From the IMG/VR virus record IMGVR_UViG_3300033553_000790: a DNA stretch of 64,000 nt; one strand, given 5' to 3'. The notes under the pieces are model-generated. The model did not search any database, was not told the DNA's origin, and saw nothing but the letters and a program-made list of their open reading frames with translations. This DNA is from an uncultured virus (IMG/VR IMGVR_UViG_3300033553_000790) (lineage: Duplodnaviria > Heunggongvirae > Uroviricota > Caudoviricetes). This document shows, piece after piece, positions 6,776 through 58,831 of this stretch. Positions within the stretch are counted from its first letter, which is position 1; every line of letters starts with the position of its first letter. The translations under genes and the position numbers were made by a program.

Positions 6776-8098
6776 ATGAGAATACAATGCGATAACGAAT
6801 CCAAGCACGTCTTCCACTATGAAGGTTCTGCTCGTCATTTAGAGTGCGCCAAAAAAGATTCCATACGGGAGGGGAAAATGACTAAATACCAAAAAGGAAT
6901 AGTGTATGTAGATTCATTAAGAACCTCTCCTAAGATAAAAGAACCAGGCTACATAGGGCACGTTATAGATGTTGACCTCTTAGACAGCAATATAAAAGAC
7001 AAATTTGTTTCAGCCACCCCTCATGAAGACCCTAACGTACCTTATGTAATTCTAAATTACACGCCGCGCGCCGCTTATGCTCAAGAATGGAACGACGCCA
7101 CCATACACAGCAGAGGTTTAATATTCGACAAAAACACTGGTGAGATAATAGCTAGAGGTTTCCCTAAATTCTTTAACTACGGTCAATTAGACAGGGATGA
7201 AATTAAAGCGCTTGAAGGTCCAGTAACAGTGACAGACAAAATGGACGGTTCTCTTGGTATACTTTATAAACTGCCCAACGGAGAGTATGCTATATCAACT
7301 CGCGGTAGTATGAACAGCGATCAGGCGGTACGAGCCACCGAAATATACAGAAATAAATATAGCGCCCACCAGCCAGAAGAAGGCAAAACATACTTATTCG
7401 AAATCATTTATCCAGAGAACAGAATAGTATTAGACTATGGCGATAAAGAAGATATCGTTCTTTTGGGGGTTCAGAATAATGTAACGGGATTAACTGAGGA
7501 TCTCTCTGATAGCTCTAACAAATGGCCGGGAGAAACAACAGAGATATTGCCATATTCAAGCTTTGACGAAGCGCTTAAAGCGCCAATCCCCGAAAACAAA
7601 GAAGGCCTTGTGCTCTATTTTCATGATAGCGGCCAGAGAGTAAAACTAAAAGGAGACACTTATTTAGCTCTCCATAAAGCTAAATTCGGACTGAACCGAA
7701 ACAAAATTATTGATGCTATAAACACTCTTAATGATAAGGAATCTTTGGACTCTTGGGTCGCTTCTCTGCCCGATGAGGTCTATACGGATGTAAAGAAATT
7801 CATTAAGGAATACAATCACACTAAAAAAGAAATAGTCCTTAAAGCAACTGAAGATGTGAAATCAATAGAAGCTAAAAACCTAACTGTTGCAGAACAACAT
7901 AAAGCTATAAGTTCGTTAGAGTTCAATACATTAGCGCAGATAATATGGGCATCAAGGATGAACAATAAAGACCATAGTTATACTAAAAATATGATAAACA
8001 GCTTCTTCGTTAAACAGTTCAAATCGGGTAAAGGGCTAACCCATAAGTTACCTCCTTTCGAAACTAAAAACATTGTTGGGAACAAAGAGGACGCATAA
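6776..8098 (+). CDS. T4 Rnl1-like RNA ligase
   Basis: SRGLIF, FPKFFN, KMDGS adenylation motif, LFEII, EGLVL, RVKLK. Confidence 0.85.
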   Translation: MRIQCDNESKHVFHYEGSARHLECAKKDSIREGKMTKYQKGIVYVDSLRTSPKIKEPGYIGHVIDVDLLDSNIKDKFVSATPHEDPNVPYVILNYTPRAAYAQEWNDATIHSRGLIFDKNTGEIIARGFPKFFNYGQLDRDEIKALEGPVTVTDKMDGSLGILYKLPNGEYAISTRGSMNSDQAVRATEIYRNKYSAHQPEEGKTYLFEIIYPENRIVLDYGDKEDIVLLGVQNNVTGLTEDLSDSSNKWPGETTEILPYSSFDEALKAPIPENKEGLVLYFHDSGQRVKLKGDTYLALHKAKFGLNRNKIIDAINTLNDKESLDSWVASLPDEVYTDVKKFIKEYNHTKKEIVLKATEDVKSIEAKNLTVAEQHKAISSLEFNTLAQIIWASRMNNKDHSYTKNMINSFFVKQFKSGKGLTHKLPPFETKNIVGNKEDA

Positions 8099-8214
8099 AT
8101 AGAATATAATAAACTAAATATTACGGCATTTTTTTCAAAAGACAAAGAAAGTGTGCTATATTCCTTTTTATAAGAAAAATATATTACTATTTTTTCACTG
8201 CAAAGGAATATATA

Positions 8215-9249
8215 ATGTTTAAAAGACAAAAAGTTTTAAGAATTGTGGCTTTAGTTTCGATTAGTGTACTAGTCGCTGCTGTATTAGTTTCGCTTATAAG
8301 CGCAAGCGCTTCAGCGTCCGCGCCATCCCTAACCTCTTCAGCTAACAGCATCAGAACCGCATCCGGACTCGCCCCTCTAAAAGTTAACTCTTCGTTAAAC
8401 TCAATTGCGCAGAACTGGGCTAACAGCATGGCCGCAGCAGATAACCTATCTCATAGCACTAACCTAAGTTCTCAAATCCCCGGAAACTGGACCAAGTACG
8501 GAGAGAACGTAGCTTTCTCTATGGATGCTGGCGGTCTAAATAGCGAGCTAGCTAGTGCTGGTAACTCTCAGATTAAAGGTGATTTCACTGATATAGGTGC
8601 CGGTATCGCAACTAGCGCAAGCGGTTGGGTTTATGGGGTTCAGGTGTTCGCAAAATACCCTGTACCAGCTCCTGCTCCTGCGCCTGCTCCTGCGCCTGCT
8701 CCCGCCCCCGCTCCTGCCCCCGCTCCTGCCCCTGCGCCTGCTCCCGCGCCTGCTCCTGCCCCTGCGCCAGCTCCTAAGGCCACAACAGCCCCTGCTCCCG
8801 CTCCGGCTCCTAAGGCCACAACAGCGCCTGAGGCTGATACAACAGCCACAACAGCGCCTGAGGCTGGTACAACAGCCCCCGTTGATAGTTCAGCAGACGA
8901 AAGCGAGTCTGCGACAAATGACACTAATACTGAGGATGAAACTATAGCTTCGGTGGAGTATTCGCCCCTATTGGGTCACGATGAAGGGACTGTTGATTGC
9001 CGACTAGTGTCTCTTTCTAACATTTTTAATGAATGTATCAAATATGATACAAAAGTTTCTGTAGAGACTTCTCCTGAAGGAACTTCTACACCTACTTTGT
9101 CGCCTCAAGAGCTGGTGGGAAATTACCCCGGAAACAGTGGCGAACCAAGTTTATTCTCTAAGGTGCTAACTTCCTTAGCTGTCGGTCTAGCGGCCATGTC
9201 TTTGGCTTGGATCGGTATTAAGGTTGCGGAGAGTAGAGTGAAAAAATAG
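8215..9249 (+). CDS. exported CAP/SCP-domain protein with Pro-Ala linker and C-terminal membrane anchor
   Basis: signal-like N-terminus; AQNWANSMA, LSH, GENVA, GIA...YGVQVF CAP motifs; (PA)n; C-terminal hydrophobic helix. Confidence 0.8.
   Translation: MFKRQKVLRIVALVSISVLVAAVLVSLISASASASAPSLTSSANSIRTASGLAPLKVNSSLNSIAQNWANSMAAADNLSHSTNLSSQIPGNWTKYGENVAFSMDAGGLNSELASAGNSQIKGDFTDIGAGIATSASGWVYGVQVFAKYPVPAPAPAPAPAPAPAPAPAPAPAPAPAPAPAPAPAPAPKATTAPAPAPAPKATTAPEADTTATTAPEAGTTAPVDSSADESESATNDTNTEDETIASVEYSPLLGHDEGTVDCRLVSLSNIFNECIKYDTKVSVETSPEGTSTPTLSPQELVGNYPGNSGEPSLFSKVLTSLAVGLAAMSLAWIGIKVAESRVKK
8659..8880 (+). repeat. coding hexanucleotide (Pro-Ala)n repeat plus ATTAP repeats
   Basis: CCTGCN tandem units. 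Confidence 0.9.
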
Positions 9250-9272: not shown

Positions 9273-9345
9273 TAGCCGCCTGGACTATATGTGACTTGAG
9301 CAGCAGTGACTTGAGTTAATAATAATCCAGGCGGCTATTCTTTTT
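9273..9345. terminator. inverted repeat between convergent genes, probable terminator
   Basis: TAGCCGCCTGGA (9273-9284) / TCCAGGCGGCTA (9326-9337), followed by TTCTTTTT. Confidence 0.55.
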
Positions 9346-11011
9346 AGTCGCTATTGGTAAAGCTGTTCATAATAGGTATTCTTCTTTCCTTCCCGAATGA
9401 GCGCCGGGTTACTTTAATTCCTATTGGATACTGCCTACGCTTCCATTCTGCATTTTTGACTAGTTTAATTACGCGGTCAACAACTTCTTTATCTTTAGTT
9501 AACTCAACGATTTTTTGGTAGGGAAGGTTCTCATCTATGTACATATTAAGGACGCTATCTAATAACGGATAAGCGGGTAGATCTTTCTCATCCTCTTGGC
9601 CGGGAGCTAGCTCAGCCGAAGCGGGCTTATCAATAGATGAGTACGGGATAGCGTTAATGTCGCCTTTAGCTACAGCATTCCTGTTTCTCCATCGCGCGAG
9701 CTCCCATACTAGAGTTTTAGATATGTCCTTAATCGGGGCATATCCCCCAACACTATCGCCATATATTGTTGAGTAGCCGACAGCTAATTCGGTTTTGTTT
9801 CCACAGGCCAAAGTAAGAGCTCCACGCGAGTTAGAAGCCGCCATCAGTATTATACCCCTCAGCCGGGATTGTAAATTCTCTGCGGATATACCTTCAAGGT
9901 CATATGTACTTTCATGGAAAGTTTTCATCATATCAGATATTGGTTTGACCTGGTGCTCCATGCCGTGCCTATCAGCTAGCTCCTTGGCGTCATCTAAAGA
10001 TCCCACCGAAGAGTAAGGGGATGGCATCGAAATAGCTATAATATTTTCACCGCCGATAGCGTCAGCAGCTAAAGCACCTACTACAGCAGAGTCGATCCCC
10101 CCGGAGACACCTAAAACAACTTTCTTGAAGCCACATTTTTTAGTGTAGCTTCTAAGGCCCATAACAAGTGCATTCCAAATTTCCTCATATGCGAGGTCTT
10201 TATTGTCTCCATGGGGAACATAGTTTAACATGCTGTCAGCACTGCCCACAACGATTTGGAAAGCAGGGAACGCTTTTATTTCACTGTTGCCGTATGTCAC
10301 ATAAAAAGATTGACCATCGAAAACAACTTCGTCCTGCCCGCCAACCCGGTTAATGTAAAGAACATCAGCATGAGACTGTTCCGACAGTTTATTAGCAAAT
10401 GAAATCCGTTGTAATTGTTTATCCATCTCATAGGGCGAGCCGTTAATGACAACTATAATGTCTGCGCTATCCGCTGTAAAGGAAACAAAAGGCCATTGAG
10501 TAGCCTCCCACATGTCGTGGCAGACCATTACCCCTATCTTATTTCCGTTAATTTCTATGGTAGGCGAAGAGGTTTTATCATATAACCGCGTTTCGAAAGC
10601 GGCTTTAAAGTTTCGCTCTTCATCGAAAACACCTTCGTTTGGCAAGTTGTTTTTAGGGAATATTTTAGGTCCGACATTGGATTGAAAGACAACTGCAGCA
10701 TTAACCGGTACCTTACAACCGTTAATATCATCGGTTATAAAAAGAGAGCCAACTATTGCAGGTGTTTTTAAAACCCCCTTGTCATATAACCCGGCCATCT
10801 CCTCGATAGCTTCCATAGACTGTTTACGTAAGTCCGGGTTGTCAGCTAAATCTTCTAGAGGATAGCCGGTGATAGTCATTTCCGGGAACACCACTAGCTC
10901 CATGCCACCCTGGTCAGCTTCTTTGATTATCTTTTGTATGTACAAAGAATTTTCTTTAACCGCTCCAGTTAGCATAGGAATCTGTGCTACAAGAATTTTA
11001 TCTTTTCTCAT
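9344..11011 (-). CDS. nadE: glutamine-dependent NAD+ synthetase
   Basis: nitrilase-type domain (FPE, PKNNLPNEGVFDE, VCHD) plus GVSGGIDS, ENLQSRLRG, GNKTE, AEWKRRQ. Confidence 0.96.
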   Translation of the reverse strand: MRKDKILVAQIPMLTGAVKENSLYIQKIIKEADQGGMELVVFPEMTITGYPLEDLADNPDLRKQSMEAIEEMAGLYDKGVLKTPAIVGSLFITDDINGCKVPVNAAVVFQSNVGPKIFPKNNLPNEGVFDEERNFKAAFETRLYDKTSSPTIEINGNKIGVMVCHDMWEATQWPFVSFTADSADIIVVINGSPYEMDKQLQRISFANKLSEQSHADVLYINRVGGQDEVVFDGQSFYVTYGNSEIKAFPAFQIVVGSADSMLNYVPHGDNKDLAYEEIWNALVMGLRSYTKKCGFKKVVLGVSGGIDSAVVGALAADAIGGENIIAISMPSPYSSVGSLDDAKELADRHGMEHQVKPISDMMKTFHESTYDLEGISAENLQSRLRGIILMAASNSRGALTLACGNKTELAVGYSTIYGDSVGGYAPIKDISKTLVWELARWRNRNAVAKGDINAIPYSSIDKPASAELAPGQEDEKDLPAYPLLDSVLNMYIDENLPYQKIVELTKDKEVVDRVIKLVKNAEWKRRQYPIGIKVTRRSFGKERRIPIMNSFTNSD

Positions 11012-11091
11012 TTAGTTTCTCCTACTAGTTAAATTATATTAGCATAGTTTACAAAAAAATCAACTTTTATAAAAAATGCCGATAGACAATG

Positions 11092-11117
11092 TGTTATAAT
11101 AGTCACTATGACCATAT
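11092..11117. promoter_or_regulatory. extended -10 promoter (TGTTATAAT) abutting a candidate NrtR operator
   Basis: TATAAT 11095-11100 followed by imperfect palindrome ATAGTCACTATGACCAT with GT-N7-AC core (11102-11112). Confidence 0.6.
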
Positions 11118-11137
11118 CGGAGGAAAGGAAGAGGAAA

Positions 11138-12403
11138 ATGGAAACTACTGCCCTATTAACTGATAAATATGAATACACCATGCTCGAAGCTGCTCTTGCC
11201 GATGGCACCGCCCACAAAATGAGTGTTTTCGAAGCTTTCACACGTAGATTACCAAAAGGTCGTGAATACGGAGTGGTAGCTGGAATTGAGCGGGTACTAG
11301 AAGCTGTTGAGAACTTCCGATTTGATGAAGATACCTTAACTTACCTATCGAATGAAGGCCTGGCCGCTAAGACAATAGATTATTTAAGGGACTTTAAGTT
11401 CTCCGGTCAAATTAACGCTTACCCGGAAGGTGAGCTTTACTTTCCTAACAGCCCGCTTATTCAAGTTATAGCTCCTTTCGGGGAGGCCGTCCTCCTAGAG
11501 ACAGTTATCCTATCTATCTTAAACTATGACTGCTCTGTTGCTTCAGCGGCAAGCCGCATGGTATGTGTTAACGATAAATTTGTTTTAACAGAAATAGGCG
11601 GACGAAGAGCACACGAAAATGCGGCAACCGCAGCGGCCCGCGCTTCTTACATAGCTGGTTTCTCAGCGACATCTAACCTTGAAGCTGGAAAGAAATATGG
11701 CATCCCAACTATAGGGACAGCGGCACACGCATTTATTTTAGCTTACGCAACAGAGAAAGAAGCATTTGCGGCTCAAATAAAAGCTTTCGGAACGAACACC
11801 ACCCTCCTGGTAGATACTTATGATATCCGCCAAGGAATTCTTAACGCCATTGAAGTAGCGGGCCCCGAATTAAACGCAATCAGAATAGACAGTGGCGATC
11901 TGAAAGAAGAGACAATCAGGGCCAGAGCCCTACTAGACAGCCTCGGTGCGTTCAACACAAAGATAGCTCTTTCAGGAGACATGGACGAAACAGAAATAGC
12001 TAAACTAGGTGACGCGCCCGCTGACATCATAGGTGTCGGTACGCGAGTAGTAACAGGCTCAGGCCATCCAACCGCTTCCATGGTTTACAAGCTAGTAGAA
12101 ATTCAAGATTCCCCTGGGGAGTGGAGAAAAGTTGAGAAGAAGTCATGTAACAAAAATAGCTCCGGTGGGCTTAAAACAGTCACTCGAACCGTTACGTTAG
12201 GTAACAACGAGGTTCTAACCACTAACAGCGACCTGGATAGAAACACAATACTTAACTACACTGCGCCTACCAGCACACAGGACAGCTACAACCCCCTAAA
12301 GACTGTGCTATCGAATGACTCTAGGATAAATGAAACAAGAATAGATGAGATGAGAGAGCTTCATGCTAGGATCATCAAGTTATACAAAAAAGGAGTGAAA
12401 TAA
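11138..12403 (+). CDS. pncB: nicotinate phosphoribosyltransferase
   Basis: LLTDKYEYTM, GTAAHAF, LLVDTYD, IRIDSGDL, GVGT, MVYKLV; ATG 11138 follows GAGG. Confidence 0.95.
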   Translation: METTALLTDKYEYTMLEAALADGTAHKMSVFEAFTRRLPKGREYGVVAGIERVLEAVENFRFDEDTLTYLSNEGLAAKTIDYLRDFKFSGQINAYPEGELYFPNSPLIQVIAPFGEAVLLETVILSILNYDCSVASAASRMVCVNDKFVLTEIGGRRAHENAATAAARASYIAGFSATSNLEAGKKYGIPTIGTAAHAFILAYATEKEAFAAQIKAFGTNTTLLVDTYDIRQGILNAIEVAGPELNAIRIDSGDLKEETIRARALLDSLGAFNTKIALSGDMDETEIAKLGDAPADIIGVGTRVVTGSGHPTASMVYKLVEIQDSPGEWRKVEKKSCNKNSSGGLKTVTRTVTLGNNEVLTTNSDLDRNTILNYTAPTSTQDSYNPLKTVLSNDSRINETRIDEMRELHARIIKLYKKGVK

Positions 12404-12404
12404 A

Positions 12405-13016
12405 ATGAGACAAATCAACGGCACCGCACTAGTAATAGTTGACATACAGAACGACTTCTGCGAAGGGGGATCTCTCGCAATAGAGGGCGGAAACAGGGTA
12501 GCGGAAAGAGTTGCTGATTTCATTCGCAAAAACAGAACCGATTATCACCTAATTGTAAGTACTCAGGATTGGCATATAGATCCGGGTGAGCACTTTGAAA
12601 CATGGCCCGTACACTGTGAAGCAGACACTTCTGGGGCGGCAATTAAAAACGAAGTGATCGCCGCTCTGAAAGATACAGAAAATTCAGATGTACCTTACAT
12701 TCCTTTCTACAAAGGTCAGTACGACGATGGGTACTCCGGATTTGAAGGTAAAACACAACACAAGGGGAAACTAGATGACACGCTCAAGCGCTACGGCATC
12801 AAGAACCTTCACGTGGTTGGATTAGCAACCGACTTCTGCGTTAAAGCAACAGCAGTTGACGCTAACAAAGCCGGATACAACACGCTGGTCATAAGTGATT
12901 TAGTAGCTGGAGTTTCTAAAGATTCTGAAAGCATTGTCAAATCAGCAGGAATAAATTTGATTTCCGCCCAAGAAGCTGCTAGACTTATACCAAGTGAACT
13001 TTTAGTAGCAGAGTAG
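12405..13016 (+). CDS. pncA: nicotinamidase
   Basis: VDIQNDFCEGGSL, TQDWH, WPVHC, YSGFEG, GLATDFCV. Confidence 0.95.
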   Translation: MRQINGTALVIVDIQNDFCEGGSLAIEGGNRVAERVADFIRKNRTDYHLIVSTQDWHIDPGEHFETWPVHCEADTSGAAIKNEVIAALKDTENSDVPYIPFYKGQYDDGYSGFEGKTQHKGKLDDTLKRYGIKNLHVVGLATDFCVKATAVDANKAGYNTLVISDLVAGVSKDSESIVKSAGINLISAQEAARLIPSELLVAE

Positions 13017-13031
13017 AACAGGACAAAAGGT

Positions 13032-13775
13032 ATGGAAAGATTATACGACTCTCATGGTTACCCGGTAAATACGGTAGCTGTTGACGCAGTTCTTTTTGCT
13101 ATTGTTAACAGCAGCCTGTGTGTCTTAGTTGACCAGCGTGAACAAAAAGACGGGGAGGGGCTGTTCTCTATTCCTGGCAGGTTCTTAAAAATTGATTTCA
13201 CCCCAGAAGAGAGCATAGATGCCGAACTCATGGATATAGGAGTTAAAGATCGAATATCTTATTTCGAGCAGCTAGGGGTAGCTGGAAGCCCAAATAGAGA
13301 TCCCAGGAAAAGAATTGTATCTATAAACTATTTCGGCATTGTTCCTTTCAATAAAGACCGCACCTCTCAACCTAAAACGCAAACAGCAAAAGGGGTGTTC
13401 ACATGGGTAGAGGTAGATTCCCTGACAGAAGCCGAAATGTTTGCTGATCATTTTTCTATAATAACTAACGCTCGTGAACGCTTAGCTAACAAAATGGAAT
13501 ACTCCCTCATAGGAATAAACTTCTTAGACAGCGATTGCTTCACAGCTAATGACATCTACCAAGTATATTCTGTTGTTTGGGGAGAGAAGCTAGACCTCCC
13601 TAACTTCAGAAGAAAACTACTTAATAACGAGAATGTTCAGACGCTCGAAGGTAGAAAGTCGCTCAGTAAAATCCATAAGATAGCTAGAACATCTCAAGCT
13701 TATAGTATTAAAGGGGATGTAAGTAGCCTATCTGTAAAACCTGTTCTTCATCCGCCCATTCTAAGGAAAACTTAA
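13032..13775 (+). CDS. nrtR: NrtR-family Nudix-wHTH regulator of NAD metabolism
   Basis: degenerate Nudix box, EQL...RDPR, DH, LDLPNFRRKLL wHTH; follows pncA. Confidence 0.85.
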   Translation: MERLYDSHGYPVNTVAVDAVLFAIVNSSLCVLVDQREQKDGEGLFSIPGRFLKIDFTPEESIDAELMDIGVKDRISYFEQLGVAGSPNRDPRKRIVSINYFGIVPFNKDRTSQPKTQTAKGVFTWVEVDSLTEAEMFADHFSIITNARERLANKMEYSLIGINFLDSDCFTANDIYQVYSVVWGEKLDLPNFRRKLLNNENVQTLEGRKSLSKIHKIARTSQAYSIKGDVSSLSVKPVLHPPILRKT

Positions 13776-18366: not shown

Positions 18367-18465
18367 CTTACCTTATAGCTTCTTTATCCTACATGAGAAT
18401 TATATCATGACTCTTCTGTTCTAACGTTAGGTAATAAAAAGAATTCCAGCATCCAGGAGGATAAA

Positions 18466-18849
18466 ATGTCAGGACCAAGTACTTACGGGCATGGTGAAAT
18501 TTTCATACATGACACACCAGAGTCAAGAAAAGCATTCTTAGACATGGGCTTCAAGGTTAGGGTATCAGATGACGATACTTTAGCTGATTATATCCTATCA
18601 GCAGGTGAGATAGAAGTTGGTAGGGCCCACGAAGGAGTTAACCTTTGTGGCTATAACGGAGACCATTACGGATATAAGAACGGTGTTAACTTAGAGGGGC
18701 TTTTGTTAGCTTTGAAAGAATGGGCTGACGACGGGTACATTGAGTTGTTAGATCAGAATATGAAACTTTGGAAGCTAGAGATAAAGAGCCATAAGTTCTA
18801 TATTTATGAAGGTAAAGCTACTTACACCAACAAAAAGGAAATAATCTAG
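18466..18849 (+). CDS. hypothetical protein
   Basis: strong RBS AGGAGG. Confidence 0.6.
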   Translation: MSGPSTYGHGEIFIHDTPESRKAFLDMGFKVRVSDDDTLADYILSAGEIEVGRAHEGVNLCGYNGDHYGYKNGVNLEGLLLALKEWADDGYIELLDQNMKLWKLEIKSHKFYIYEGKATYTNKKEII

Positions 18850-29120: not shown

Positions 29121-29861
29121 ATGAGTAACTTCGAAAGCCGGTTCAAAGCAAAAGAATCCCAATACCGTAACGTCCTTGAAAGAAGAAGCTTATATGCCAT
29201 TCGTGTAGATGGTAGGGCTTTCAAGAATTACACATCTAAGTTTGATAAGCCTTTTGACACTAAATTCATGGAAGGGATGAACCAAACATGTGTTGCTTTA
29301 TGTAACGAAGTTGCTGGAGCTATATTAGGTTACGTTCAGTCCGATGAGATAAGTGTGATCTTCTCCGACCTCAGTGGTGAGAAAACAGAAATGTGGTTTG
29401 GCGGCAAACAAGATAAAATTATTTCCATAGCCGCTTCAACAGCTACAGGGGCTTTAATAAACGCCTTAGGGTCAAACCCCACTCCAATGTTCGACGCTAG
29501 AATACTCAAATTAGATAACGTTAACGAAGCGGAAGACTATTTAGCTTGGCGCTCCGGAGATGCTTTCAAGAACGCCATTTCAATGGCAGCTAACAGTCGA
29601 TATTCCAGCAAACAACTAGATGGGATGAACACACCCCAAAGAATAAGCCTCCTCGAAAAGGAACAACCGAAACTATATGCCAGCCTACCTGAAGGCTTCA
29701 AACACGGAAGGCTAGCTATGAAAGAAGACTACAAAGGTATTGTTGAGTTCTTCCATAAAGGAGATCAGGAAAAGAAAGTAATTGAAGTCACTAAAACCAG
29801 ATGGAAAGTAGATAGTTTCAAAGTAAACAACGCATCTTCAGTGTTACAAATGTTCAAATAA
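29121..29861 (+). CDS. Thg1-like protein (tRNA-His guanylyltransferase / 3'-5' polymerase)
   Basis: IRVDGRAF, KPFD, YVQSDEIS, FDAR, WR..DA..N. Confidence 0.92.
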   Translation: MSNFESRFKAKESQYRNVLERRSLYAIRVDGRAFKNYTSKFDKPFDTKFMEGMNQTCVALCNEVAGAILGYVQSDEISVIFSDLSGEKTEMWFGGKQDKIISIAASTATGALINALGSNPTPMFDARILKLDNVNEAEDYLAWRSGDAFKNAISMAANSRYSSKQLDGMNTPQRISLLEKEQPKLYASLPEGFKHGRLAMKEDYKGIVEFFHKGDQEKKVIEVTKTRWKVDSFKVNNASSVLQMFK

Positions 29862-29910: not shown

Positions 29911-29982
29911 GCCCTTATAGCTCAACGGCAGAGCAGAACATTCTAAACGTTATGGTTGTGGGTTCAAATCCCACTGAGGGCA
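29911..29982 (+). tRNA. tRNA with CUA anticodon (amber suppressor type)
   Basis: acceptor GCCCTTA/TGAGGGC, D arm GCTC/GAGC, loop TT-CTA-AA (anticodon 29943-45), T arm GTGGG-TTCAAAT-CCCAC, discriminator A, no encoded CCA; anticodon stem has two mismatches. Confidence 0.85.
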
Positions 29983-30006
29983 CGCAGAAGAAAAGAAGGT
30001 AACAAC

Positions 30007-30138
30007 ATGGAAAGAGCAAACACTTTCACCTAGGTTCTAATTAACGAACCACTATTTTCTGCACCATTTTTAGGACATACTGACTTATTGTTAGTGTGTC
30101 CTTTTTTAGTACCCAAAAACAAACGAAAGGAAAAATAA
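30007..30138 (+). CDS. putative leader peptide with internal amber codon (MERANTFT*VLINEP...KEK)
   Basis: AAGG RBS, ATG 30007, TAG 30031-33, open to TAA 30136-38 which overlaps the next ATG. Confidence 0.6.
30072..30107 (+). terminator. intrinsic terminator / attenuator inside the leader readthrough frame
   Basis: 13-bp stem AGGACATACTGAC / GTTAGTGTGTCCT (with G-U pairs), loop TTATT, T-run 30102-30107. Confidence 0.8.
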
Positions 30139-30509
30139 TGGAATCTAAAGAAGCACAGGAATTAGTTAAAAAGTATGAGGAATTCGCAGAGTTCATAGAG
30201 AACAGAGCATACGTGGTGTTCGATGCGGTATACCCTGATCGGCATTCAGATTACTTATCCTTCTTAGCTGTTGAAGGTAAAACAATCGTAATGGAAGAAA
30301 GTTACAGGGGAGAAACCGAGGGGCAGCGCTATTTCCCCATCGACACGTTCTTCATGAGCGATGAGCAGCTAAGTAAAAAGAAGGAGAGTAATTTAGCTGA
30401 TGTAGCAAAGAGGAAACTGGAAACTAAAGCTGCAGCAGAAAAGCAAAAAGAAACCAGGGAGCGGCAGTTACTAGAAGAGTTACAAAAGAAATACAACCCA
30501 ACCAACTAA
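30138..30509 (+). CDS. hypothetical protein, paralog of 30524-30913
   Basis: ATG 30138 after AAGGA; identical C-terminus RQLLEELQKKYNPTN. Confidence 0.7.
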   Translation: MESKEAQELVKKYEEFAEFIENRAYVVFDAVYPDRHSDYLSFLAVEGKTIVMEESYRGETEGQRYFPIDTFFMSDEQLSKKKESNLADVAKRKLETKAAAEKQKETRERQLLEELQKKYNPTN

Positions 30510-30523
30510 ACGAAGGAAAGAAA

Positions 30524-30913
30524 ATGAAACTATCGGAAGCACAAAAAGCCGTTGCACGGTATGAGGAGTTAACTGAGTTGATCGAAAGTAAAGCTCATAT
30601 GGTTTTCGATTCGCTTTACCCTAACCAACATCACAATTACTTCGAATTCGAATCCGTAGAGAATAACCAAGTCACACTAACGGAGAGATACAGGGATGAT
30701 CTCGAATATCATCACTTCCCTTTAGAGCTATTCTTCAGAAGTGATGAGCAACTCAAACAAGACAAGGAGGGCACCTTGGAAGCAATGAAACAAGCTAAGC
30801 TTAAAGCTAAAAAACTTGCTGAAGAAGCTAAAGCAAAAGCCGCGCAGCAAAAAGAAATCGAAGAGCGTCAGCTTTTAGAAGAGTTACAAAAGAAATACAA
30901 CCCAACCAACTAA
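30524..30913 (+). CDS. hypothetical protein, paralog of 30138-30509
   Basis: EAQ..V..YEE...VFD..YP...FP...FF.SDEQL shared. Confidence 0.7.
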   Translation: MKLSEAQKAVARYEELTELIESKAHMVFDSLYPNQHHNYFEFESVENNQVTLTERYRDDLEYHHFPLELFFRSDEQLKQDKEGTLEAMKQAKLKAKKLAEEAKAKAAQQKEIEERQLLEELQKKYNPTN

Positions 30914-30929
30914 ACAAAGGAAAAAGAAA

Positions 30930-31922
30930 ATGACCTAGGTACAAACAAACAACAAATTATATGTAATCACCCACAACCAACTATCAGCAGGGGCTCAGAC
31001 CCTCCAAACGGCGCACGCTGTTGCTGATTGGATTGTGGCTAACCCAACAGAGTGTAAAAAATGGAAAGAAGATTCCAACTCCATTATTGCTTTAGCTACA
31101 AAAACAGAAGAAGAACTGTACGGCCTGTTAAAGAAAATAGATGAACAAGGCCACAGTTACACTATTTTTCGTGAACCTGACTTCGGGAATGCCATAACAG
31201 CTATCGCTGTGACCCCGGCTGGTAATAACAAGAAGCTATTCGCTAATCTCCCTTTAGCTGGTAAGATAACCGACTTAGAATATGAAAGTAGGAAACTAGC
31301 TGGCGAGCGAAAGAAACGAAAAGCTAGTTTCGATATGTTCAACACCGACCAAGCTGAAAGTCAGAACATAATGGAGCACGGAGAATCTGTCTACCGGCAT
31401 TACACTCAAATCAAAAAGCATATGGAAGGTAAAATAGATTTAAGTGACAACCCTTTCTGGATAATACCCGAATGGTTAAACGAAAATTTTTACAACATAT
31501 TGGAGAACTTACCGTCAGATTATGTCATGGAAAGATACTTGACACTCCATGATTGTGGTAAACCAGCCGTACAAATAACCGTGGATGGGAAGAAAAGATT
31601 CCCAGGTCACGCAGAAGCGTCAGCTGATATGTTCAGAACAGTTTTCTCTCATGATATGACATCTGAAAGCGACCAACTGATAGCACACTTTATTGAGTAT
31701 GACATGGATGTTCATATGCTAAAAGCAGATGATGTGGAGGAATTTGCTTTATCTGAGTATGCTATGACACAATTTATTGTTGCCTTATCGGAAATAATGG
31801 CTAATGCTGAAATGTTCGGAGGAACAGAATCTGTCAACTTCAAAATAAAATATAAAACCTTGAACCAGCGAGCTAAGAAAATGTTCAGAATTTTAGAAGA
31901 GAAGGTGCTGATAAAAGTTTAA
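30930..31922 (+). CDS. PTH2-like peptidyl-tRNA hydrolase fused to HD domain; amber codon at position 3
   Basis: ATG ACC TAG GTA... is in frame with the 31035 ORF and restores KLYVIT...GAQTLQTAHAVA; FREPDFGNAITAIA; HD part EHG...LHDCGK...GHAEASA. Confidence 0.8.
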
Positions 31923-32402: not shown

Positions 32403-33242
32403 ATGACCAGCTTAAGTAACAAAAATAATTTACCAGATAACTTCATGCTTGTTAGGCATGGGCTGTCTGAAGCTAACATATTTCAGAAAGGCCAGTTCCC
32501 TAACGGAGCGAAACTTGAGGTAGTTCCTGAGGAATTCGGTACGCGCCATGACAGCCTGATGCGTTTATCTCAACACGGAACTGAGCAAGCCGAAGCTGCC
32601 GGAGTTTGGCTGAAAAACTGGCTCGAAGCTAACAGTATGGCTAACTTCGAAAGGTTCTATGTTTCCCCGCACCTTAGAACAAAAGAAACAGCGGCCCACT
32701 TAGGGTTAGGTGGGGAATGGCGAGTGGATGACCGCCTCCGTGAACGCGACTGGGGTTTGCTAGCTCCGCTCAGTAAAGAAGTCCAAGATACTGACCACAA
32801 AGCTGTAATGGCTTTGAAGAAACAAAACGAATGGTACTGGCAGCCGCCGTCAGGAGAATCTTTAGCCACAGGCGTAAGAACACGGTTCACACAGCTCATG
32901 GATTCTTTATACAGGAAGCCCGCCGCTGGCAGTATCATTGCCGTGACCCACGGTGAGCTAATCCGCACAGCACAATTCGTTCTAGAGCGTATGACCCCTC
33001 AACAGTGGCTTAAAATGGACAGTAGCGGCGATTACAGAATAAAGAACTGTATGATACTCCATTACACGCGAGTTAACCCGGTAACAGGTGAAAAATCAGA
33101 CCGATACACCCACAGGCGCGCTATCTGCCCGTGGAATTCAGACTTCTCATGGAATGGTGAACAATGGAGTGAAATTGAATATAAGCTCTACAGTGACAAG
33201 GAGTTACTTAACAGTTTAGAGAAATATCCTAGATTACTTTAA
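32403..33242 (+). CDS. histidine phosphatase (phosphoglycerate mutase family)
   Basis: LVRHGLSEAN, SPHLRT, LRERDWG, GES, VTHGE. Confidence 0.88.
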   Translation: MTSLSNKNNLPDNFMLVRHGLSEANIFQKGQFPNGAKLEVVPEEFGTRHDSLMRLSQHGTEQAEAAGVWLKNWLEANSMANFERFYVSPHLRTKETAAHLGLGGEWRVDDRLRERDWGLLAPLSKEVQDTDHKAVMALKKQNEWYWQPPSGESLATGVRTRFTQLMDSLYRKPAAGSIIAVTHGELIRTAQFVLERMTPQQWLKMDSSGDYRIKNCMILHYTRVNPVTGEKSDRYTHRRAICPWNSDFSWNGEQWSEIEYKLYSDKELLNSLEKYPRLL

Positions 33243-35381
33243 GCCGGTTTCTTTAAGCCAGCGTACTTTCCCAGCATCCCAGATGCGAGGAATTCCGTTA
33301 AGCGCAGCTAACTCCTTCTCTGTCATCCCTTCTTCATAATTCAAATTAGGGTCATTCCTAAACCTTTTAATTCTGTAACCAAACTTATGGTTACGCTTAC
33401 CTTCACTTATGTACATGTAATCAGGCGCTAAATTCTCATCTAAAGTGAAACCATTATTTTCGTATAGTCCACCATCACTCACAGTGTTGTCAGAGAAAGT
33501 AACCCATTTCTTTATTCCGGGGATGTCTCTTTCAGCTTGTTTCATAAGTTTAGTGAAACCACCCGGAATACCAACACTAGTCGCATAACGCTCTATAAGC
33601 CATTTACCTTCATCACCCGTGCTACTGGCGGCTTTGATAACTAGGACAGCGACAAGCCCCTTCTCTGGGCTGGTAAGACCATAATATTTACTACCAGCAG
33701 CGGAGCCCTGAACGTGGTTAAGGTTCAAGAAATCTGAAGCTGTAGCATAATCCACTTTAACAGCATTAAGTTTCCTCGCCCCTATCCTTTCCGAACCGGA
33801 GGCCTTAAGTTTATGTAGCAACGAGCTCTTAATGAACTCTCCATTAGCTGACCAGTCATCCTCCCATATCTGGATTAACTGTATACCGAGATCCTTACAG
33901 ACTTTATATTTATTGTAATGATACCACTTGTCTTTACCCATAGCTTCGCTATGCCAATACAAACCGTTGAACTCTACAGCTAAATTCTTCTCAGGCAAAT
34001 GAATATCCAACTCACCTTTAATGACATCCCGAACTGACTGTAAAATCTCAGTGTCAGGCAAAGCCTCTTTCAGATAAAGGAAAAGGTCCTGCTCCGCTTT
34101 GGAAATGCGATTAGAGCATTTAGGGCATCCGTGTTCAGCAAAAACGCGACTGTCTACATCAGTCCTCCATGTATGGTTCTTATTTTTACTACAAACCCAA
34201 TAGAACCTATCTTTAGAGCTAACACCTATGCTATGTGGATCTACATCATTTTTAACATAATCCCATTCTTTTAGAAGCCCTGGGAACCTTGTGGCGAAAT
34301 CGTTCACCCCGTTATCAACATAATACCCAGCACAGGTCGGGCATTTACCTAAAGTGCTGACCGGAGATTCCCATTTATGACCTTTCTCGCATAACCAGAA
34401 AACGTCTTTCCTCATACCTCTCGTATAGTTCTCCGGACCTTGCTCATTCTTGGTGTAATCCCAGCGGTCTTTTATTTCAGGGTTAGTTGTCAGGATGTCA
34501 TTAAACCCTTCCAAAACAACCCTGTTCCGGCAGACAGGGCATCTTTCCTGTGAGCCTGTTTTCCTCTCACGCGTAACATCACTAACCATAGCTGACCAAG
34601 AATGACCTGAAGCGCAGTGCCAATTGAGGGTAACACCGCTTTTAACTGTAATTTTATCTAAGTCAACATCCGGGTTGTCTGTAGTTTTTAGCATCTCGAA
34701 GAGATGTGGGAGCCCCGAAGATAACAACTTACCTGTATTGTAAACTCTTGCTGAGCCGGGTTTCCGACCAGCGCAAATTGGGCATCCTTGATTATGGGCA
34801 CTGCGGTTATTGACTGAAGCAACCCACCCATGCCCGCAAGCTCCAACCCAAATAACTTTTTTCACCGAACCATAAGTAACCTCTTTAGGGGTTAACTCAT
34901 TTTTGTCAGACCATTCAGCAGCAAGCTCAGGATGAGTTGTTGCCAAATCATTAAAACCACGCAGAATAACACGGTTCGCGCAGACATCACACTTACGCCC
35001 CTTCACACGCGCTTTAACAGCGGCTTCCCATTCATGACCTAACTTGCAAACCCACAGCACTTCTTTCCCACTTATAGGAGTAACATCTGAAGCAGCCAGT
35101 TCATTATTCTTGGACCACTCAGCTGCTAATTCAGGGTGAGTAGTAGCTAAATCATTAAACCCAACAATTAACCTCCTACCCGAACACACAGGGCAAAGAT
35201 ATGTTTTACGAACCCTATCCCTCGCTGCTGAACTCCAAGTATGACCAACAGGACATAACCAATATATTTTCTTAGCTGAATTCAACGATATCTGACCAGG
35301 AGTTAAAGAGCCATTCAAAGCTGGGTGCCACTCTGAAAGCACCCCACCAGGGGCATCCTCATAAGTTAAGTCAGTAGACAT
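33234..35381 (-). CDS. free-standing homing-endonuclease-like protein with tandem zinc-ribbon repeats
   Basis: repeated W.C..GH.W.....R....CP.C units; ELDIHLPEKNLAVEFNGLYWHS nuclease core; WEDDW. Confidence 0.75.
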   Translation of the reverse strand: MSTDLTYEDAPGGVLSEWHPALNGSLTPGQISLNSAKKIYWLCPVGHTWSSAARDRVRKTYLCPVCSGRRLIVGFNDLATTHPELAAEWSKNNELAASDVTPISGKEVLWVCKLGHEWEAAVKARVKGRKCDVCANRVILRGFNDLATTHPELAAEWSDKNELTPKEVTYGSVKKVIWVGACGHGWVASVNNRSAHNQGCPICAGRKPGSARVYNTGKLLSSGLPHLFEMLKTTDNPDVDLDKITVKSGVTLNWHCASGHSWSAMVSDVTRERKTGSQERCPVCRNRVVLEGFNDILTTNPEIKDRWDYTKNEQGPENYTRGMRKDVFWLCEKGHKWESPVSTLGKCPTCAGYYVDNGVNDFATRFPGLLKEWDYVKNDVDPHSIGVSSKDRFYWVCSKNKNHTWRTDVDSRVFAEHGCPKCSNRISKAEQDLFLYLKEALPDTEILQSVRDVIKGELDIHLPEKNLAVEFNGLYWHSEAMGKDKWYHYNKYKVCKDLGIQLIQIWEDDWSANGEFIKSSLLHKLKASGSERIGARKLNAVKVDYATASDFLNLNHVQGSAAGSKYYGLTSPEKGLVAVLVIKAASSTGDEGKWLIERYATSVGIPGGFTKLMKQAERDIPGIKKWVTFSDNTVSDGGLYENNGFTLDENLAPDYMYISEGKRNHKFGYRIKRFRNDPNLNYEEGMTEKELAALNGIPRIWDAGKVRWLKETGLK

Positions 35382-58260: not shown

Positions 58261-58327
58261 AAACAAACGCACTAGATATATGCTATACTGAATTAACATT
58301 ACAGAAAACTACTACCAAGGAGTTATT

Positions 58328-58831
58328 ATTAAAGATTTAAGAGTTAACCGACAGATCCGCACTAACCGGGACATCCTGTTAGTGGTACCGAGCCAGTCTG
58401 CTCCTGTTCCCGTAGCAGTAGAATCAGCTATCAGGTTAGCTGAAGAGCAAGGCCTCGACTTAGTAGAAATGAGCAACCAGAATGGTGTTTCTACTTGTAA
58501 AATTATGGACTACGGCAAATATTCTTATAAAAAGAAACAAGCCGAAAAAGCTAACCGCCAAGTCAACAAACATATTACCAAAGAGTATAAATTCGGCGTT
58601 AACATTACAGACCACGATCTGGGCATAAAGATATCCCATATGTCTGAATACATAGACAAAAATGCTGTCGTTAAAGTAACTATCCGACTAAGAGGTAGAG
58701 AAATGTCTCACCCCGCGTTAGCCGTTAGCCTCGCTGAAAAAATTTCTGCCGGACTGGGCGATAAGGCTAAGATACTACAGGCTATGAGCACCGAAGGTAA
58801 CACGATGCATTTTTCTCTTGTGAAAAAATAG
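58328..58831 (+). CDS. infC: translation initiation factor IF3 with ATT start
   Basis: AAGGAG then ATT 58328 gives (M)KDLRVNRQIR; GLDLVE, CKIMDYGKYSY, HDL..K, VKVTIRLRGRE. Confidence 0.88.
   Translation: MKDLRVNRQIRTNRDILLVVPSQSAPVPVAVESAIRLAEEQGLDLVEMSNQNGVSTCKIMDYGKYSYKKKQAEKANRQVNKHITKEYKFGVNITDHDLGIKISHMSEYIDKNAVVKVTIRLRGREMSHPALAVSLAEKISAGLGDKAKILQAMSTEGNTMHFSLVKK

Follow-up and report, generated by a model that had tools for sequence, protein, structure and literature searches.

Translation of a PTH2-HD gene in an uncultured virus probably depends on an amber suppressor tRNA encoded by the phage itself, and comparison of homologous genes suggests that this design is common to many giant phages. 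The gene occupies positions 30930–31922 of the window, the 64,000-nucleotide stretch of IMG/VR record IMGVR_UViG_3300033553_000790 that was analysed here. We propose that the ribosome starts at ATG 30930, behind an AAGGA motif, and would reach a UAG at codon 3 of a 330-codon frame. The phage tRNA(CUA) would put an amino acid in at this UAG, and synthesis would run on to the full two-domain protein; if charged tRNA is missing, release factor 1 (RF1) would stop translation after Met-Thr, and no enzyme would be made. Because of this termination at Met-Thr, the output of enzyme would be gated by the activity of the suppressor tRNA and would scale with it. An earlier note on this DNA had argued that the conserved N terminus of the product is reached only by reading through codon 3. 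The gene for tRNA(CUA), which lies 947 nt upstream of the PTH2-HD gene on the same strand, was absent from that note and supplies a mechanism for such read-through.

The reading frame of the window gene is intact (Table 1). Beyond the leader TAG, 327 codons are open up to the TAA, and the first in-frame ATG, GTG or TTG is GTG 31035, 32 codons on. The codons directly 3' of the TAG are GTA, CAA and ACA, and the first ATN codon, an ATC, falls within strand b1 of the PTH2 domain. No SD-like motif is present in the sequence ahead of GTG 31035. These readings bear out the earlier note on three points: the UAG at codon 3 of an otherwise open frame, the AAGGA ahead of ATG 30930, and the lack of any canonical start before GTG 31035 that would give access to the conserved PTH2 N terminus without read-through. 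Across the window, the PTH2-HD gene is the sole case in which ATG, one to four codons and TAG are followed by at least 100 open codons without a nearby canonical start. One other window gene, which is IF3-like, has the same shape with TGA as its stop. The segment 30886–31346 was compared with contigs assembled independently from two DNA runs, which come from one study that is possibly the window's own source, and no letter differed at a depth of ~9x; both samples thus agree on the TAG, and an assembly slip can be discounted. One RNA run from the same study gave no cover of the window. The CCTAGG palindrome at the TAG was considered as a signal and rejected, its count (10 sites against 13 expected) being attributable to chance. 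A megablast search with 4.2 kb of the window against phages gave no match, and a single-protein pattern search of IMG/VR returned no relative of the window protein.

Table 1. Features of the PTH2-HD gene and its upstream neighbourhood in the window.
Feature	Position	Strand	Details	Evidence
Thg1-like tRNA-His guanylyltransferase gene	29121..29861	+	directly upstream of the tRNA	phrog_4717, E 3.5e-58; Pfam Thg1, 86.8 bits (cut-off 29.2)
tRNA, anticodon CUA, amber suppressor type	29911..29983	+	class I; no encoded CCA; anticodon loop UU-CUA-AA	ARAGORN, Rfam
Shine-Dalgarno-like AAGGA	30917..30921	+	8 nt 5' of ATG 30930	sequence
Leader ATG ACC TAG	30930..30938	+	ATG 30930-32, ACC 30933-35, TAG 30936-38 (codon 3); next base G	sequence, homologous leaders
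Pth2-fold domain (putative)	30939..31268	+	post-TAG residues 1-110	Pfam, alignment A1, AF2, Foldseek, PDB profile
GTG, start in mechanical ORF call	31035..31037	+	use would cut off 32 conserved residues
HD-type phosphohydrolase-like domain	31320..31919	+	QHG ... HDxGKP ... FPxH ... DM..H	alignment A2, weak HMM/fold matches
TAA terminator of PTH2-HD gene	31920..31922	+		sequence

The fold of the N-terminal domain supports its identification as a putative peptidyl-tRNA hydrolase 2, and Pfam, fold and profile searches agree on the PTH2 assignment made in the earlier note. Pfam PTH2 (PF01981) scores 28.1 bits on the post-TAG protein of 327 residues, above the cut-off of 23, which is missed by the 295-residue ORF started at GTG (20.6 bits). 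The AF2 model of the window protein has a pLDDT of 86.9, with strand b1 and helix a1 at 86–94. Foldseek pairs the predicted domain with 3erj, 2zv3, 1wn2, 1q7s and 1xty at a probability of 1.00, with TM scores of 0.69–0.75 (normalised to the target; 0.73–0.75 for 3erj, 2zv3, 1q7s and 1xty) over 109–118 aligned columns. In a profile search against the PDB (E 4.5e-10), the alignment begins at chain residue 2, and solved Pth2 chains align from residue 2–4. A start at GTG 31035 would indeed cost the domain its first strand and helix, as the earlier note had held, since strand b1 (residues 7–12), most of helix a1 (residues 17–34), Q23 and H26 all lie ahead of it. Five residues, Q23, H26, E79, P80 and T87, are invariant within the phage clade, and D81 is almost always kept (alignment A1). 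The phage domain has the same fold, over the whole domain, as the archaeal and eukaryotic Pth2 proteins (3erj, 2zv3, 1wn2, 1q7s [Bit1] and 1xty), but it occurs fused to, or coupled with, an HD domain, and its version of their GKGK loop is two residues shorter and free of lysine (S16-A-G-A19 in the window protein). Work on Pth2 of S. solfataricus reportedly assigns catalytic roles to the lysine of this loop and to an aspartate.

The HD assignment of the earlier note stands by motif, with weak backing from HMM and fold comparisons. The metal-ligand motif is invariant in alignment A2, where it comprises H77-D78 (HDxGKP), H97, D128 and H132 in addition to the upstream QHG; in the numbering of alignment A3, the invariant residues are H204, D205, H224, D255 and H259. 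Pfam HD (PF01966) scores 16.7–17.8 bits (16.7–16.9 in the search that gave the PTH2 scores), below the cut-off of 22, and reaches E<0.1 in six of ten family members, with a best value of 4.7e-4. The AF2 model of this domain is all-helical with high pLDDT. Its Foldseek matches are weak and include 3wfo (E 3.8e-3), HD-GYP 4mcw (3e-2), PPX/GppA and PhnZ, while a profile search against the PDB selects 3wfo–3wfs (E 6e-4). These comparisons point, weakly, to the HD region of enzymes in the class-II tRNA nucleotidyltransferase family as the closest relative of solved structure. The HDxGKP motif and surrounding helices of that tRNA nucleotidyltransferase/poly(A) polymerase family are common to the phage domain (Foldseek E 4e-3 to 1e-2), but the likeness is weak and covers ~95 residues, and the phage protein has no nucleotidyltransferase head. 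Such a relationship would fit the role in healing tRNA ends at which the earlier note had guessed.

The tRNA(CUA) of the window fits the standard tRNA model from end to end (Rfam, 61.9 bits, E 3.3e-12), and the Rfam alignment places two non-standard pairs in its anticodon stem. All 46 CUA tRNAs that were compared are class I and 71–78 nt long, and comparison with other phage tRNAs brings them closest to a mixture of isotypes, Arg, Val, Trp and Lys among them. The Thg1-like gene next to the tRNA marks the context as a tRNA-maintenance cluster. The window phage also has an IF3 homolog, whose start is apparently ATT.

The leader recurs in distant homologs, far beyond chance. Homologous loci were found with a pattern derived from HD alignment A2, PTH2 alignment A1 being too divergent for a pattern search, and the survey comprised 80 IMG/VR viral loci with 111 unique 5' ends of PTH2/HD genes. 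ATG, zero to four codons and TAG stand ahead of the conserved core at 77 of these 111 ends, against 39 of 2375 background ORFs (Fisher p 4.6e-89). The earlier note had said that a TAG private to the window's genome would overturn its reading, and these counts show that it is not private. At 94 of the 111 ends, TAG is the first in-frame stop met on going upstream. Other stops in the leader position are confined to three TGA codons; TAA is the commonest stop in the surveyed loci, yet it ends no leader. An SD-like 4-mer stands ahead of the ATG in 39 of the 77 leaders, compared with 534 of 5000 random positions. The base after the leader TAG is A in 64 cases, G in 10, C in 6 and T in none, and a purine at this position favours amber suppression in E. 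coli. Thirty of the 43 leader-bearing genes in which PTH2 comes first have no canonical start before the core. Among the 34 in which HD comes first, 22 have a canonical start shortly past the TAG, so the leader is not strictly required there. In-frame stops inside the 126 domain matches are TAG in six cases, TAA in one and TGA in none. GAP32 and XbC2 have one internal TAG in common.

A clear leader of ATG, one or two codons and TAG was also found in 12 of 14 GenBank records of named phages: pT24, LR745206, RAS14, XacN1, RsoM2USA, ME3, GAP32, XbC2, Arash, LR756500, LR756504 and LR756511. The leader of Sebata is ambiguous (ATG TAG GTG), and the 5' end of the RaK2 PTH2/HD gene has none. The leader follows the gene through rearrangement: it is still 5'-most in RAS14 and XacN1, where the order of the domains is swapped, and it heads both genes of LR745206, where the domains are split. 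Among cellular sequences, four bacterial or megaplasmid HD homologs have neither the TAG nor a tRNA(CUA). In MAG contigs, an in-frame TAG is present in six of six, preceded by ATG in five and by TTG in the sixth (L152), with a tRNA(CUA) in four of the six. Annotation often misses these genes, as 14 of 32 GenBank records contain a PTH2 match with no annotated gene beneath it, and the records of pT24, RAS14 and Arash are annotated from a truncated start.

The leader co-occurs with tRNA(CUA). Of the 80 IMG/VR loci, 55 have at least one tRNA, and in 41 of them a tRNA(CUA) is no more than 10 kb away; the remaining 39 of the 80 have none in their 10-kb flanks, to which the search was mostly limited. 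Ten of the 12 leader-bearing named phages have one, LR756504 has an atypical candidate, and none was found by pattern search in the leaderless RaK2. LR745206 (635 kb, with two TAG leaders) yielded no tRNA(CUA) by Rfam (61 hits), ARAGORN including its intron-allowing mode, two patterns, or BLAST with the tRNA-like element of a relative. A 97%-complete relative of 508 kb that bears the leader likewise gave none, either by pattern search or when ARAGORN was run on the locus that the pattern hit. In the opposite direction the association is incomplete: among 68 viral loci with a confirmed tRNA(CUA), only 20 have a PTH2 homolog within 10 kb, and the upstream stop is TAG in 11 of these 20. In a single locus (L074), the HD gene has the leader ATG-TCA-TGA with a tRNA(UCA) nearby and a Met codon nine codons later; another TGA leader (L101) has no suppressor in its flank. 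Atu_ph07, a standard-code jumbo phage that carries a UCA suppressor (PMC6102473), was sought as a test of TGA/UCA covariation and is absent among the HD-domain and PTH2-domain tblastn matches.

From these patterns we infer that read-through occurs, and the alternatives can be weighed against the same data. Points that count against read-through are the two non-standard pairs in the anticodon stem of the window tRNA, the leader-bearing genomes and loci in which no tRNA(CUA) was found, and the incomplete association seen from the side of the tRNA. It is unlikely, in our judgement, that ATG-NNN-TAG is a tiny upstream ORF and that the enzyme begins by re-initiation or at a non-canonical start, such as ATT or ATA, directly behind the stop, with no suppressor involved. 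The codon after the TAG is ATT in 41 of the 77 leaders, and a further 7 have ATA, ATC or ATG there; this agrees with such a start, as do the leaders of LR745206 and the 508-kb relative with no detectable tRNA(CUA) and the apparent ATT start of the IF3 homolog. Since translation can start, weakly, at ATT, one can conceive of re-initiation in the ATT genes but not in the window, where GTA follows the TAG and none of the three codons there is a start. The earlier note had also named non-canonical initiation downstream of the TAG as an outcome that would overturn its reading, and the window offers no plausible codon for it; a non-ATN codon also follows the TAG in 29 of the 77 leaders. Moreover, any stop would serve for re-initiation, yet the leaders end in TAG in 77 cases against no TAA and three TGA, and neither the tight linkage to tRNA(CUA) nor the internal TAGs of the HD genes would be explained.

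Sensing of RF1 itself is a considerably weaker candidate. In this scheme, the leader would respond to how active RF1 is, and the tRNA(CUA) close by would have other functions. The exclusive use of TAG, an RF1-only stop, suits RF1 sensing as well as it suits suppression, and some leader-bearing genomes have no detectable tRNA(CUA). Against this stand the cognate tRNA 947 nt upstream in the window and its counterparts in most of the named phages and in half of the surveyed loci, and no RF1 inhibitor was identified.

That the gene is decaying or mis-assembled, with any product being the 295-residue protein from GTG 31035, is highly improbable. The mechanical ORF call does begin at this GTG, and the match to phrog_14850 begins only at residue 35; the latter boundary is traceable to records annotated from a truncated start, such as the pT24 CDS. 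The GTG has no SD-like motif, the 32 residues lost would include invariant ones together with strand b1 and most of helix a1, the TAG is the same in both assembled samples, and dozens of distant phages keep the leader ahead of an otherwise intact frame.

Genome-wide use of TAG as a sense codon (code 15), or insertion of pyrrolysine, is the least credible reading: in its favour are the tRNA(CUA) and the Pyl label that ARAGORN attaches to it, but this label derives from the anticodon only, tRNA-Pyl has a special architecture whereas this tRNA fits the ordinary model, no gene for Pyl synthesis (pylS/pylBCD) is found among the 62 annotated window ORFs, TAG is the stop of 16 of the 81 ORFs in the window and of 9 of the 55 long ones, and same-frame ORF pairs split by TAG are not in excess. 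Two candidate TAG-joined pairs in the window are not read-through genes. In the pair 12405–13016/13032–13775, a nicotinamidase gene comes first and a Nudix/NMN-type gene with a start of its own comes second, and the pair 63209–62868/62858–62574 has no homolog and looks spurious; both were rejected as suppressor targets. Within the 64-kb window, the PTH2-HD gene is the only one that needs read-through. Since TAG is still an ordinary terminator in these phages, the gating would be specific to this gene and not a matter of genome-wide recoding.

For the purpose of suppressor-dependent read-through, we favour a sensor or feed-forward link in which the UAG would gauge the ratio of suppression to termination, in a manner resembling prfB, and would set the dose of enzymes that clean tRNA 3' ends. 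The gate would also prevent a tRNA hydrolase that might do harm from being made before the phage's set of tRNAs is mature. Because the UAG comes so early, failed read-through would be cheap. The early position also puts the stop where the nascent chain is very short and termination by RF1 is poor. An efficient suppressor would carry a cost, since TAG ends so many other ORFs of the window. A bolder and rather doubtful extension is that tRNA(CUA) and the UAG-gated PTH2 and HD genes form a closed circuit, and that giant phages with the standard code retain an amber suppressor mainly because of this circuit. In it, the UAG would report suppressor activity, the Pth2-like domain would deacylate tRNAs and the HD domain would trim or heal their 3' ends; the suppressor itself, or peptidyl-tRNAs arising from read-through, might be among the substrates. 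If so, the system would be a tRNA-based homeostat with a logic like that of prfB, and a class of phage genes would be systematically unannotated on account of a leader of two to five codons ending in TAG.

We found no published description of a UAG-gated PTH2/HD design in the literature. The suppressor tRNAs of standard-code phages are not known to have targets. The proposal would give them a definite and conserved one that can be tested, namely a Pth2-like hydrolase and an HD phosphohydrolase encoded by genes that begin with ATG, zero to four codons and TAG. It would also link the tRNA-maintenance genes of giant phages, namely tRNAs, Thg1-like enzymes, RNA ligase, PTH2 and HD, and the regulation of these genes could be approached in the cultured phages GAP32, XacN1, RAS14, ME3 and pT24.

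Several known systems resemble parts of this design. In prfB, which encodes RF2, an in-frame UGA measures RF2, the escape is a +1 frameshift, and the product is the factor that reads the stop. The PTH2-HD gene is similar in its early in-frame stop and in an output that would be set by termination versus alternative decoding, but its proposed escape is by a dedicated tRNA instead of a frameshift. The bar minigenes of phage lambda are stand-alone, cause peptidyl-tRNA drop-off and are toxic in pth-defective hosts. They share with the leader the form of a mini-ORF (ATG-NNN-stop, two or three codons) and a setting that involves peptidyl-tRNA hydrolase, whereas the mini-ORF described here is in frame with the hydrolase gene, fused to it, and always ended by TAG. 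The earlier note had likened the Met-Thr mini-ORF to minigenes that cause such drop-off, a role it might have. A phage tRNA(CUA) that reads in-frame TAG is a feature shared with the code 15 phages (Lak, crAss-like and some jumbo phages), but here TAG still terminates, only one gene in the 64 kb would need read-through, and the TAG sits at codons 2–5 of one gene family. Suppressor tRNAs have been linked to recoded jumbo phages, and a 2026 survey treats them, in its passages on the subject, solely within whole-genome recoding (PMC13037316). The standard-code jumbo phage XacN1 carries the same design, with two tRNA(CUA) genes and ATG AAG TAG heading ORF364. Its authors extended 18 annotated genes past their amber stops, came up with nothing and stated that they were unable to identify targets (PMC5852040); because a two-codon leader is never annotated, this approach could not have seen the target. 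Synthetic biology has independently built a comparable device: an engineered feed-forward loop with a suppressor tRNA removes leaky expression, as its amber-containing target needs the co-expressed suppressor (PMC7969014). The PTH2-HD gene would be a natural, widely conserved counterpart of that loop, in which a natural suppressor tRNA acts as a gene-specific translational switch.

The TAG leader of the PTH2-HD gene, an ATG and zero to four sense codons followed by an in-frame TAG before a conserved PTH2 or HD core, is real and conserved. In the window, the gene opens with ATG ACC TAG GTA CAA ACA AAC AAC AAA TTA TAT GTA ATC ACC, and the frame after the TAG stays open for 327 codons. The AAGGA noted earlier as a ribosome-binding site is present 8 nt upstream of the ATG. 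The earlier note's statements that the ORF track starts at a GTG and that no canonical start separates the TAG from the first PTH2-type motif are borne out by the sequence: the GTG, 32 codons on, is the earliest canonical start past the TAG and the one reported by a mechanical ORF list.

The Pfam PTH2 profile scores 28.1 bits with the post-TAG residues and 20.6 bits without them, and only the longer form clears the cut-off of 23. The 32 residues behind the TAG contain Q23 and H26, invariant in a 12-phage domain alignment, and the same part holds strand b1 (residues 7-12) and helix a1 (17-34) in an AlphaFold2 model (mean pLDDT 86.9) built with 11 fused homologs taken from viral contigs. Foldseek aligns the N-terminal domain with solved Pth2 proteins (3erj, 2zv3, 1wn2, Bit1 1q7s, 1xty) at target-normalised TM scores of 0.69-0.75, and a profile of the phage domain matches solved Pth2 proteins from their residue 2-4 on (best E 4.5e-10). 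The residues behind the TAG are therefore core protein, as the earlier note had claimed for the conserved PTH2 N-terminus. Unlike cellular Pth2, which has a GKGK loop, the phage clade has a loop two residues shorter and devoid of lysine. The profile search proposed for the extended protein passed the threshold for PTH2 and stayed under it for HD, the C-terminal domain scoring 16.7-17.8 bits against the Pfam cut-off of 22. This domain keeps the HD-type ligand set QHG, HDxGKP, FPxH and DM..H. Among solved structures it comes closest to 3wfo-3wfs, HD regions of enzymes of the class-II tRNA nucleotidyltransferase family (E 6e-4 by profile, 4e-3 to 1e-2 by Foldseek).

The window is large-phage DNA (GC 41.5%) encoding a Pol III alpha-like polymerase, RNR, NAD-synthesis genes, an RNA ligase, a Thg1-like enzyme, an IF3 homolog and a sigma factor; megablast against 50,697 phage records returned no close relative. 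Across the 64 kb, ARAGORN detects exactly one tRNA, which had gone unnoticed in the earlier note. It has the anticodon CUA, lies on the same strand as PTH2-HD, and scores 61.9 bits (E 3.3e-12) against the Rfam tRNA model, with an anticodon loop UU-CUA-AA and two non-standard pairs in the anticodon stem; ARAGORN labels it 'Pyl' because of the anticodon alone. The Thg1-like gene, this tRNA(CUA), two small paralogous ORFs and PTH2-HD follow one another head to tail. The paralogs, of unknown function, have near-identical C-terminal ends (...RQLLEELQKKYNPTN), and their repeat interrupts independent assemblies at two places.

Coordinates of features in the window and in the loci used for comparison
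Sequence	Feature	Position	Strand
Window	NAD salvage cluster: NAD synthetase (-), nicotinamide phosphoribosyltransferase-like gene, nicotinamidase, Nudix/NMN-adenylyltransferase-like gene	9344-13775	
Window	Thg1-like gene	29121-29861	+
Window	tRNA(CUA)	29911-29983	+
Window	Tandem paralogous ORFs	30096-30509, 30524-30913	+
Window	Assembly interruptions at paralog repeat	30482-30501, 30876-30915	
Window	AAGGA	30917-30921	
Window	PTH2-HD gene	30930-31922	+
Window	First canonical start past TAG (GTG)	31035	
Window	TAA ending PTH2-HD	31920-31922	
Window	715-aa zinc-ribbon ORF	33234-35381	-
Window	IF3 homolog	58280-58831	+
Window	ATG CTA TAC TGA mini-ORF	58280-58291	
Window	AAGGAG	58317-58322	
Window	ATT ATT	58325-58330	
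Window	First canonical start of IF3 homolog (GTG)	58382	
RAS14 (L035)	tRNA, anticodon UUA	18429-18503	
XacN1 (L037)	Tandem tRNA(CUA) pair and tmRNA gene	7048-7206, 8202-8622	
LR745206 (L040)	tRNA-like gene	1525-1648	
RsoM2USA (L055)	HD gene, internal TAG	1657	
GAP32 (L057)	HD gene, internal TAG	1600	
Arash (L058)	tRNA(CUA)	2464-2535	
XbC2 (L059)	HD gene, internal TAG	1450	
Viral contig L074	tRNA(UCA)	2476-2553	
Viral contig L074	HD gene with TGA leader	9902-10531	
LR756504 (L293)	Suppressor-like tRNA	346-421	

Further features of the window lie outside this cluster. The 715-aa ORF combines many repeated Cys-x2-Cys zinc-ribbon motifs with a homing/HNH-endonuclease-like C-terminal part; a histidine-phosphatase gene borders it on one side and the RNR small-subunit gene on the other. 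In the IF3 homolog (Pfam IF3_N 60.6 bits, IF3_C 71.2 bits), the conserved N-terminal domain lies ahead of the first canonical start; an AAGGAG is followed there by ATT ATT, so its start is probably ATT. Bacterial infC likewise has an AUU start. The four-codon mini-ORF sits in frame directly upstream.

An IMG/VR search with an HD-domain alignment confirmed 116 loci, and the best 80 of these, taken with 10-kb flanks, include a PTH2 match in 71 cases and hold 111 unique 5' ends. The nearest upstream in-frame stop is TAG in 94 of the 111, and 77 carry ATG-(0-4 codons)-TAG near the conserved core; TAA takes this place in none and an ATG-led TGA in three. Among all other stop-to-stop ORFs of at least 100 codons in the same loci (n = 2375), TAG lies upstream in 489 and the ATG-led form occurs in 39 (Fisher p 4.6e-89 for 77/111 versus 39/2375). 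The homolog 5' DNA, a check the earlier note had proposed, thus places the TAG well beyond this genome, at these 77 5' ends and in 12 named phages. One spacer codon separates ATG from TAG in 37 cases, two in 22, three in 12, none in 7 and four in 2; the base following the leader TAG is A in 64, G in 10, C in 6 and T in 0. SD-like 4-mers precede the leader ATG in 39/77, versus 534/5000 random positions and 255/979 first ATGs of long ORFs. No canonical start lies ahead of the core in 30 of 43 PTH2-first leader genes and in 12 of 34 HD-first ones, the other 22 having one, in many cases a conserved Met some 9 codons on. Internal stops within domain matches (126 unique) are TAG in six, TAA in one and TGA in none.

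Among named phages, tblastn found 259 records with a relative, and 5' ends were examined in 14. The leader reads ATG AAA TAG in pT24; ATG AAG TAG in RAS14, XacN1 and LR756500; ATG TTG TAG in RsoM2USA; ATG ACT TAG in ME3; ATG GCA CAA TAG in GAP32; ATG GCT CAC TAG in XbC2; ATG CTG TAG in Arash; ATG ACA TAG in LR756504; and ATG ACT CAC TAG in LR756511. LR745206 carries one on its PTH2 gene (ATG AAC AAT TAG) and another on a separate HD gene (ATG AAT ACT TAG). Sebata is ambiguous (ATG TAG GTG, that GTG being the annotated start), and RaK2 begins with a plain ATG. RAS14 and XacN1 have the domains in the opposite order (HD, then PTH2), with the leader again heading the gene at its 5' end. An extra internal in-frame TAG occurs in the HD genes of GAP32, XbC2 and RsoM2USA, at a position common to GAP32 and XbC2 (...LISELDTG-TAG-GDP...), and in all three the neighbouring PTH2 gene bears the leader TAG. 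GenBank records break these HD genes into fragments; in 14 of 32 GenBank phage records nothing is annotated at the PTH2 match, and the gene is annotated from a truncated start in pT24 and RAS14 and as a 50-aa fragment in Arash.

The leader is linked to tRNA(CUA). Of the best 80 of the 116 IMG/VR loci, 41 have a tRNA(CUA) no more than 10 kb away, often directly beside the PTH2/HD genes; these are 41 of the 55 with any tRNA in that range. Ten of the 12 leader-bearing named phages have one: pT24, RAS14, XacN1 (two genes in tandem), ME3, GAP32, XbC2, Arash, LR756511, RsoM2USA and LR756500; that of Arash is tRNA-Phe in GenBank and has the anticodon CUA by ARAGORN. The sole suppressor-like tRNA found in LR756504 (636 kb) has, by ARAGORN, an eight-membered anticodon loop with 'tcta', which includes CUA. 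No tRNA(CUA) was detectable in LR745206 or, by pattern search, in a 97%-complete 508-kb relative. A third relative carries a sub-threshold tRNA-like element (CUCUAAA loop, 25.4 bits) that ARAGORN missed, so divergent suppressors can escape detection. In the leaderless RaK2, pattern search gave no CUA tRNA. Among prokaryotes, searched with one genome per species, the HD homolog occurs in only 10 loci. The four on true bacterial replicons, of which two are chromosomes and two Pseudomonas megaplasmids, show no TAG leader, PTH2 partner or tRNA(CUA); in all six on MAG contigs an in-frame TAG stands shortly before a PTH2 or HD gene, preceded by ATG in five and by TTG in one (L152), and four have tRNA(CUA). 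The reverse association is only partial: a CUA-tRNA pattern gave, among the matches listed and with one source dominant, 80 viral loci, 68 of them ARAGORN-confirmed, and in 20 of these 68 a PTH2 homolog occurs no more than 10 kb away, its upstream stop being TAG 11 times, TAA 7 times and TGA twice.

Other RNA genes occur in these phages. RAS14 also has an ochre-type tRNA, and LR745206 a tRNA-like gene (Rfam tRNA 40.9 bits) with normal acceptor, D and T arms and a 62-nt insert in place of the anticodon arm. In XacN1, the tRNA(CUA) pair is followed at a distance of 1 kb by a tmRNA gene (tag ANANTFDYALAA); a ribosome-rescue RNA therefore adjoins the suppressors. On one viral contig (L074), the HD gene has the leader ATG TCA TGA, the PTH2 gene a normal ATG start, and 7.4 kb upstream of the HD gene there is a tRNA(UCA); this single case is suggestive of a possible opal version of the leader design.

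TAG still acts as a terminator, ending 16 of 81 selected ORFs in the window and, among long ORFs, 9/55 in the window, 10/139 in LR745206-like loci and 13/151 in loci where a CUA tRNA lies close by. With TAG-split same-frame ORF pairs showing no excess, genome-wide recoding was rejected. Two candidate TAG-joined ORF pairs in the window proved on examination not to be read-through genes, and PTH2-HD is the only candidate suppressor target within the 64 kb.

We propose that tRNA(CUA) would decode UAG at codon 3 to yield the 330-residue PTH2-HD protein, and that RF1 would release Met-Thr in its absence; at so early a position, failed read-through would be cheap. RF-dependent termination is inefficient when the nascent chain is very short, and amber suppression in E. 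coli works best with A, and next G, after UAG, an order with which that of the leaders (A > G > C > T) agrees. For genomes without detectable tRNA(CUA), RF1 sensing with near-cognate read-through could operate. Re-initiation past the mini-ORF, at the codon that comes next, might draw on the ATT that directly follows the TAG in 41 of the 77 leaders, but it does not fit: this codon is GTA in the window, and exclusive TAG use and the tRNA(CUA) linkage are at odds with it. Decay or mis-assembly is excluded by the conserved leader and by contigs that are identical between two samples.

As to the purpose of read-through by tRNA(CUA), we favour a dose-setting or licensing link from suppressor activity to two enzymes that would act on tRNA 3' ends; alternatively, it could keep a harmful hydrolase free of leaky or untimely expression, or feed back negatively onto the suppressor itself.

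A full-text literature search, covering main texts, returned no account of a PTH2/HD gene gated by TAG. In the text of the XacN1 study, read-through of 18 amber stops gave no target of its suppressors (PMC5852040), that of the Atu_ph07 study does no more than speculate on UGA targets (PMC6102473), and that of a survey published in 2026 on 10,754 jumbo phages considers suppressor tRNAs only alongside whole-genome recoding (PMC13037316). The present case is best filed as probable gene-specific amber gating, in which a suppressor tRNA encoded by the phage itself would control a Pth2-like/HD enzyme pair within an otherwise standard code, which extends known phage stop-codon suppression in a gene-specific form.
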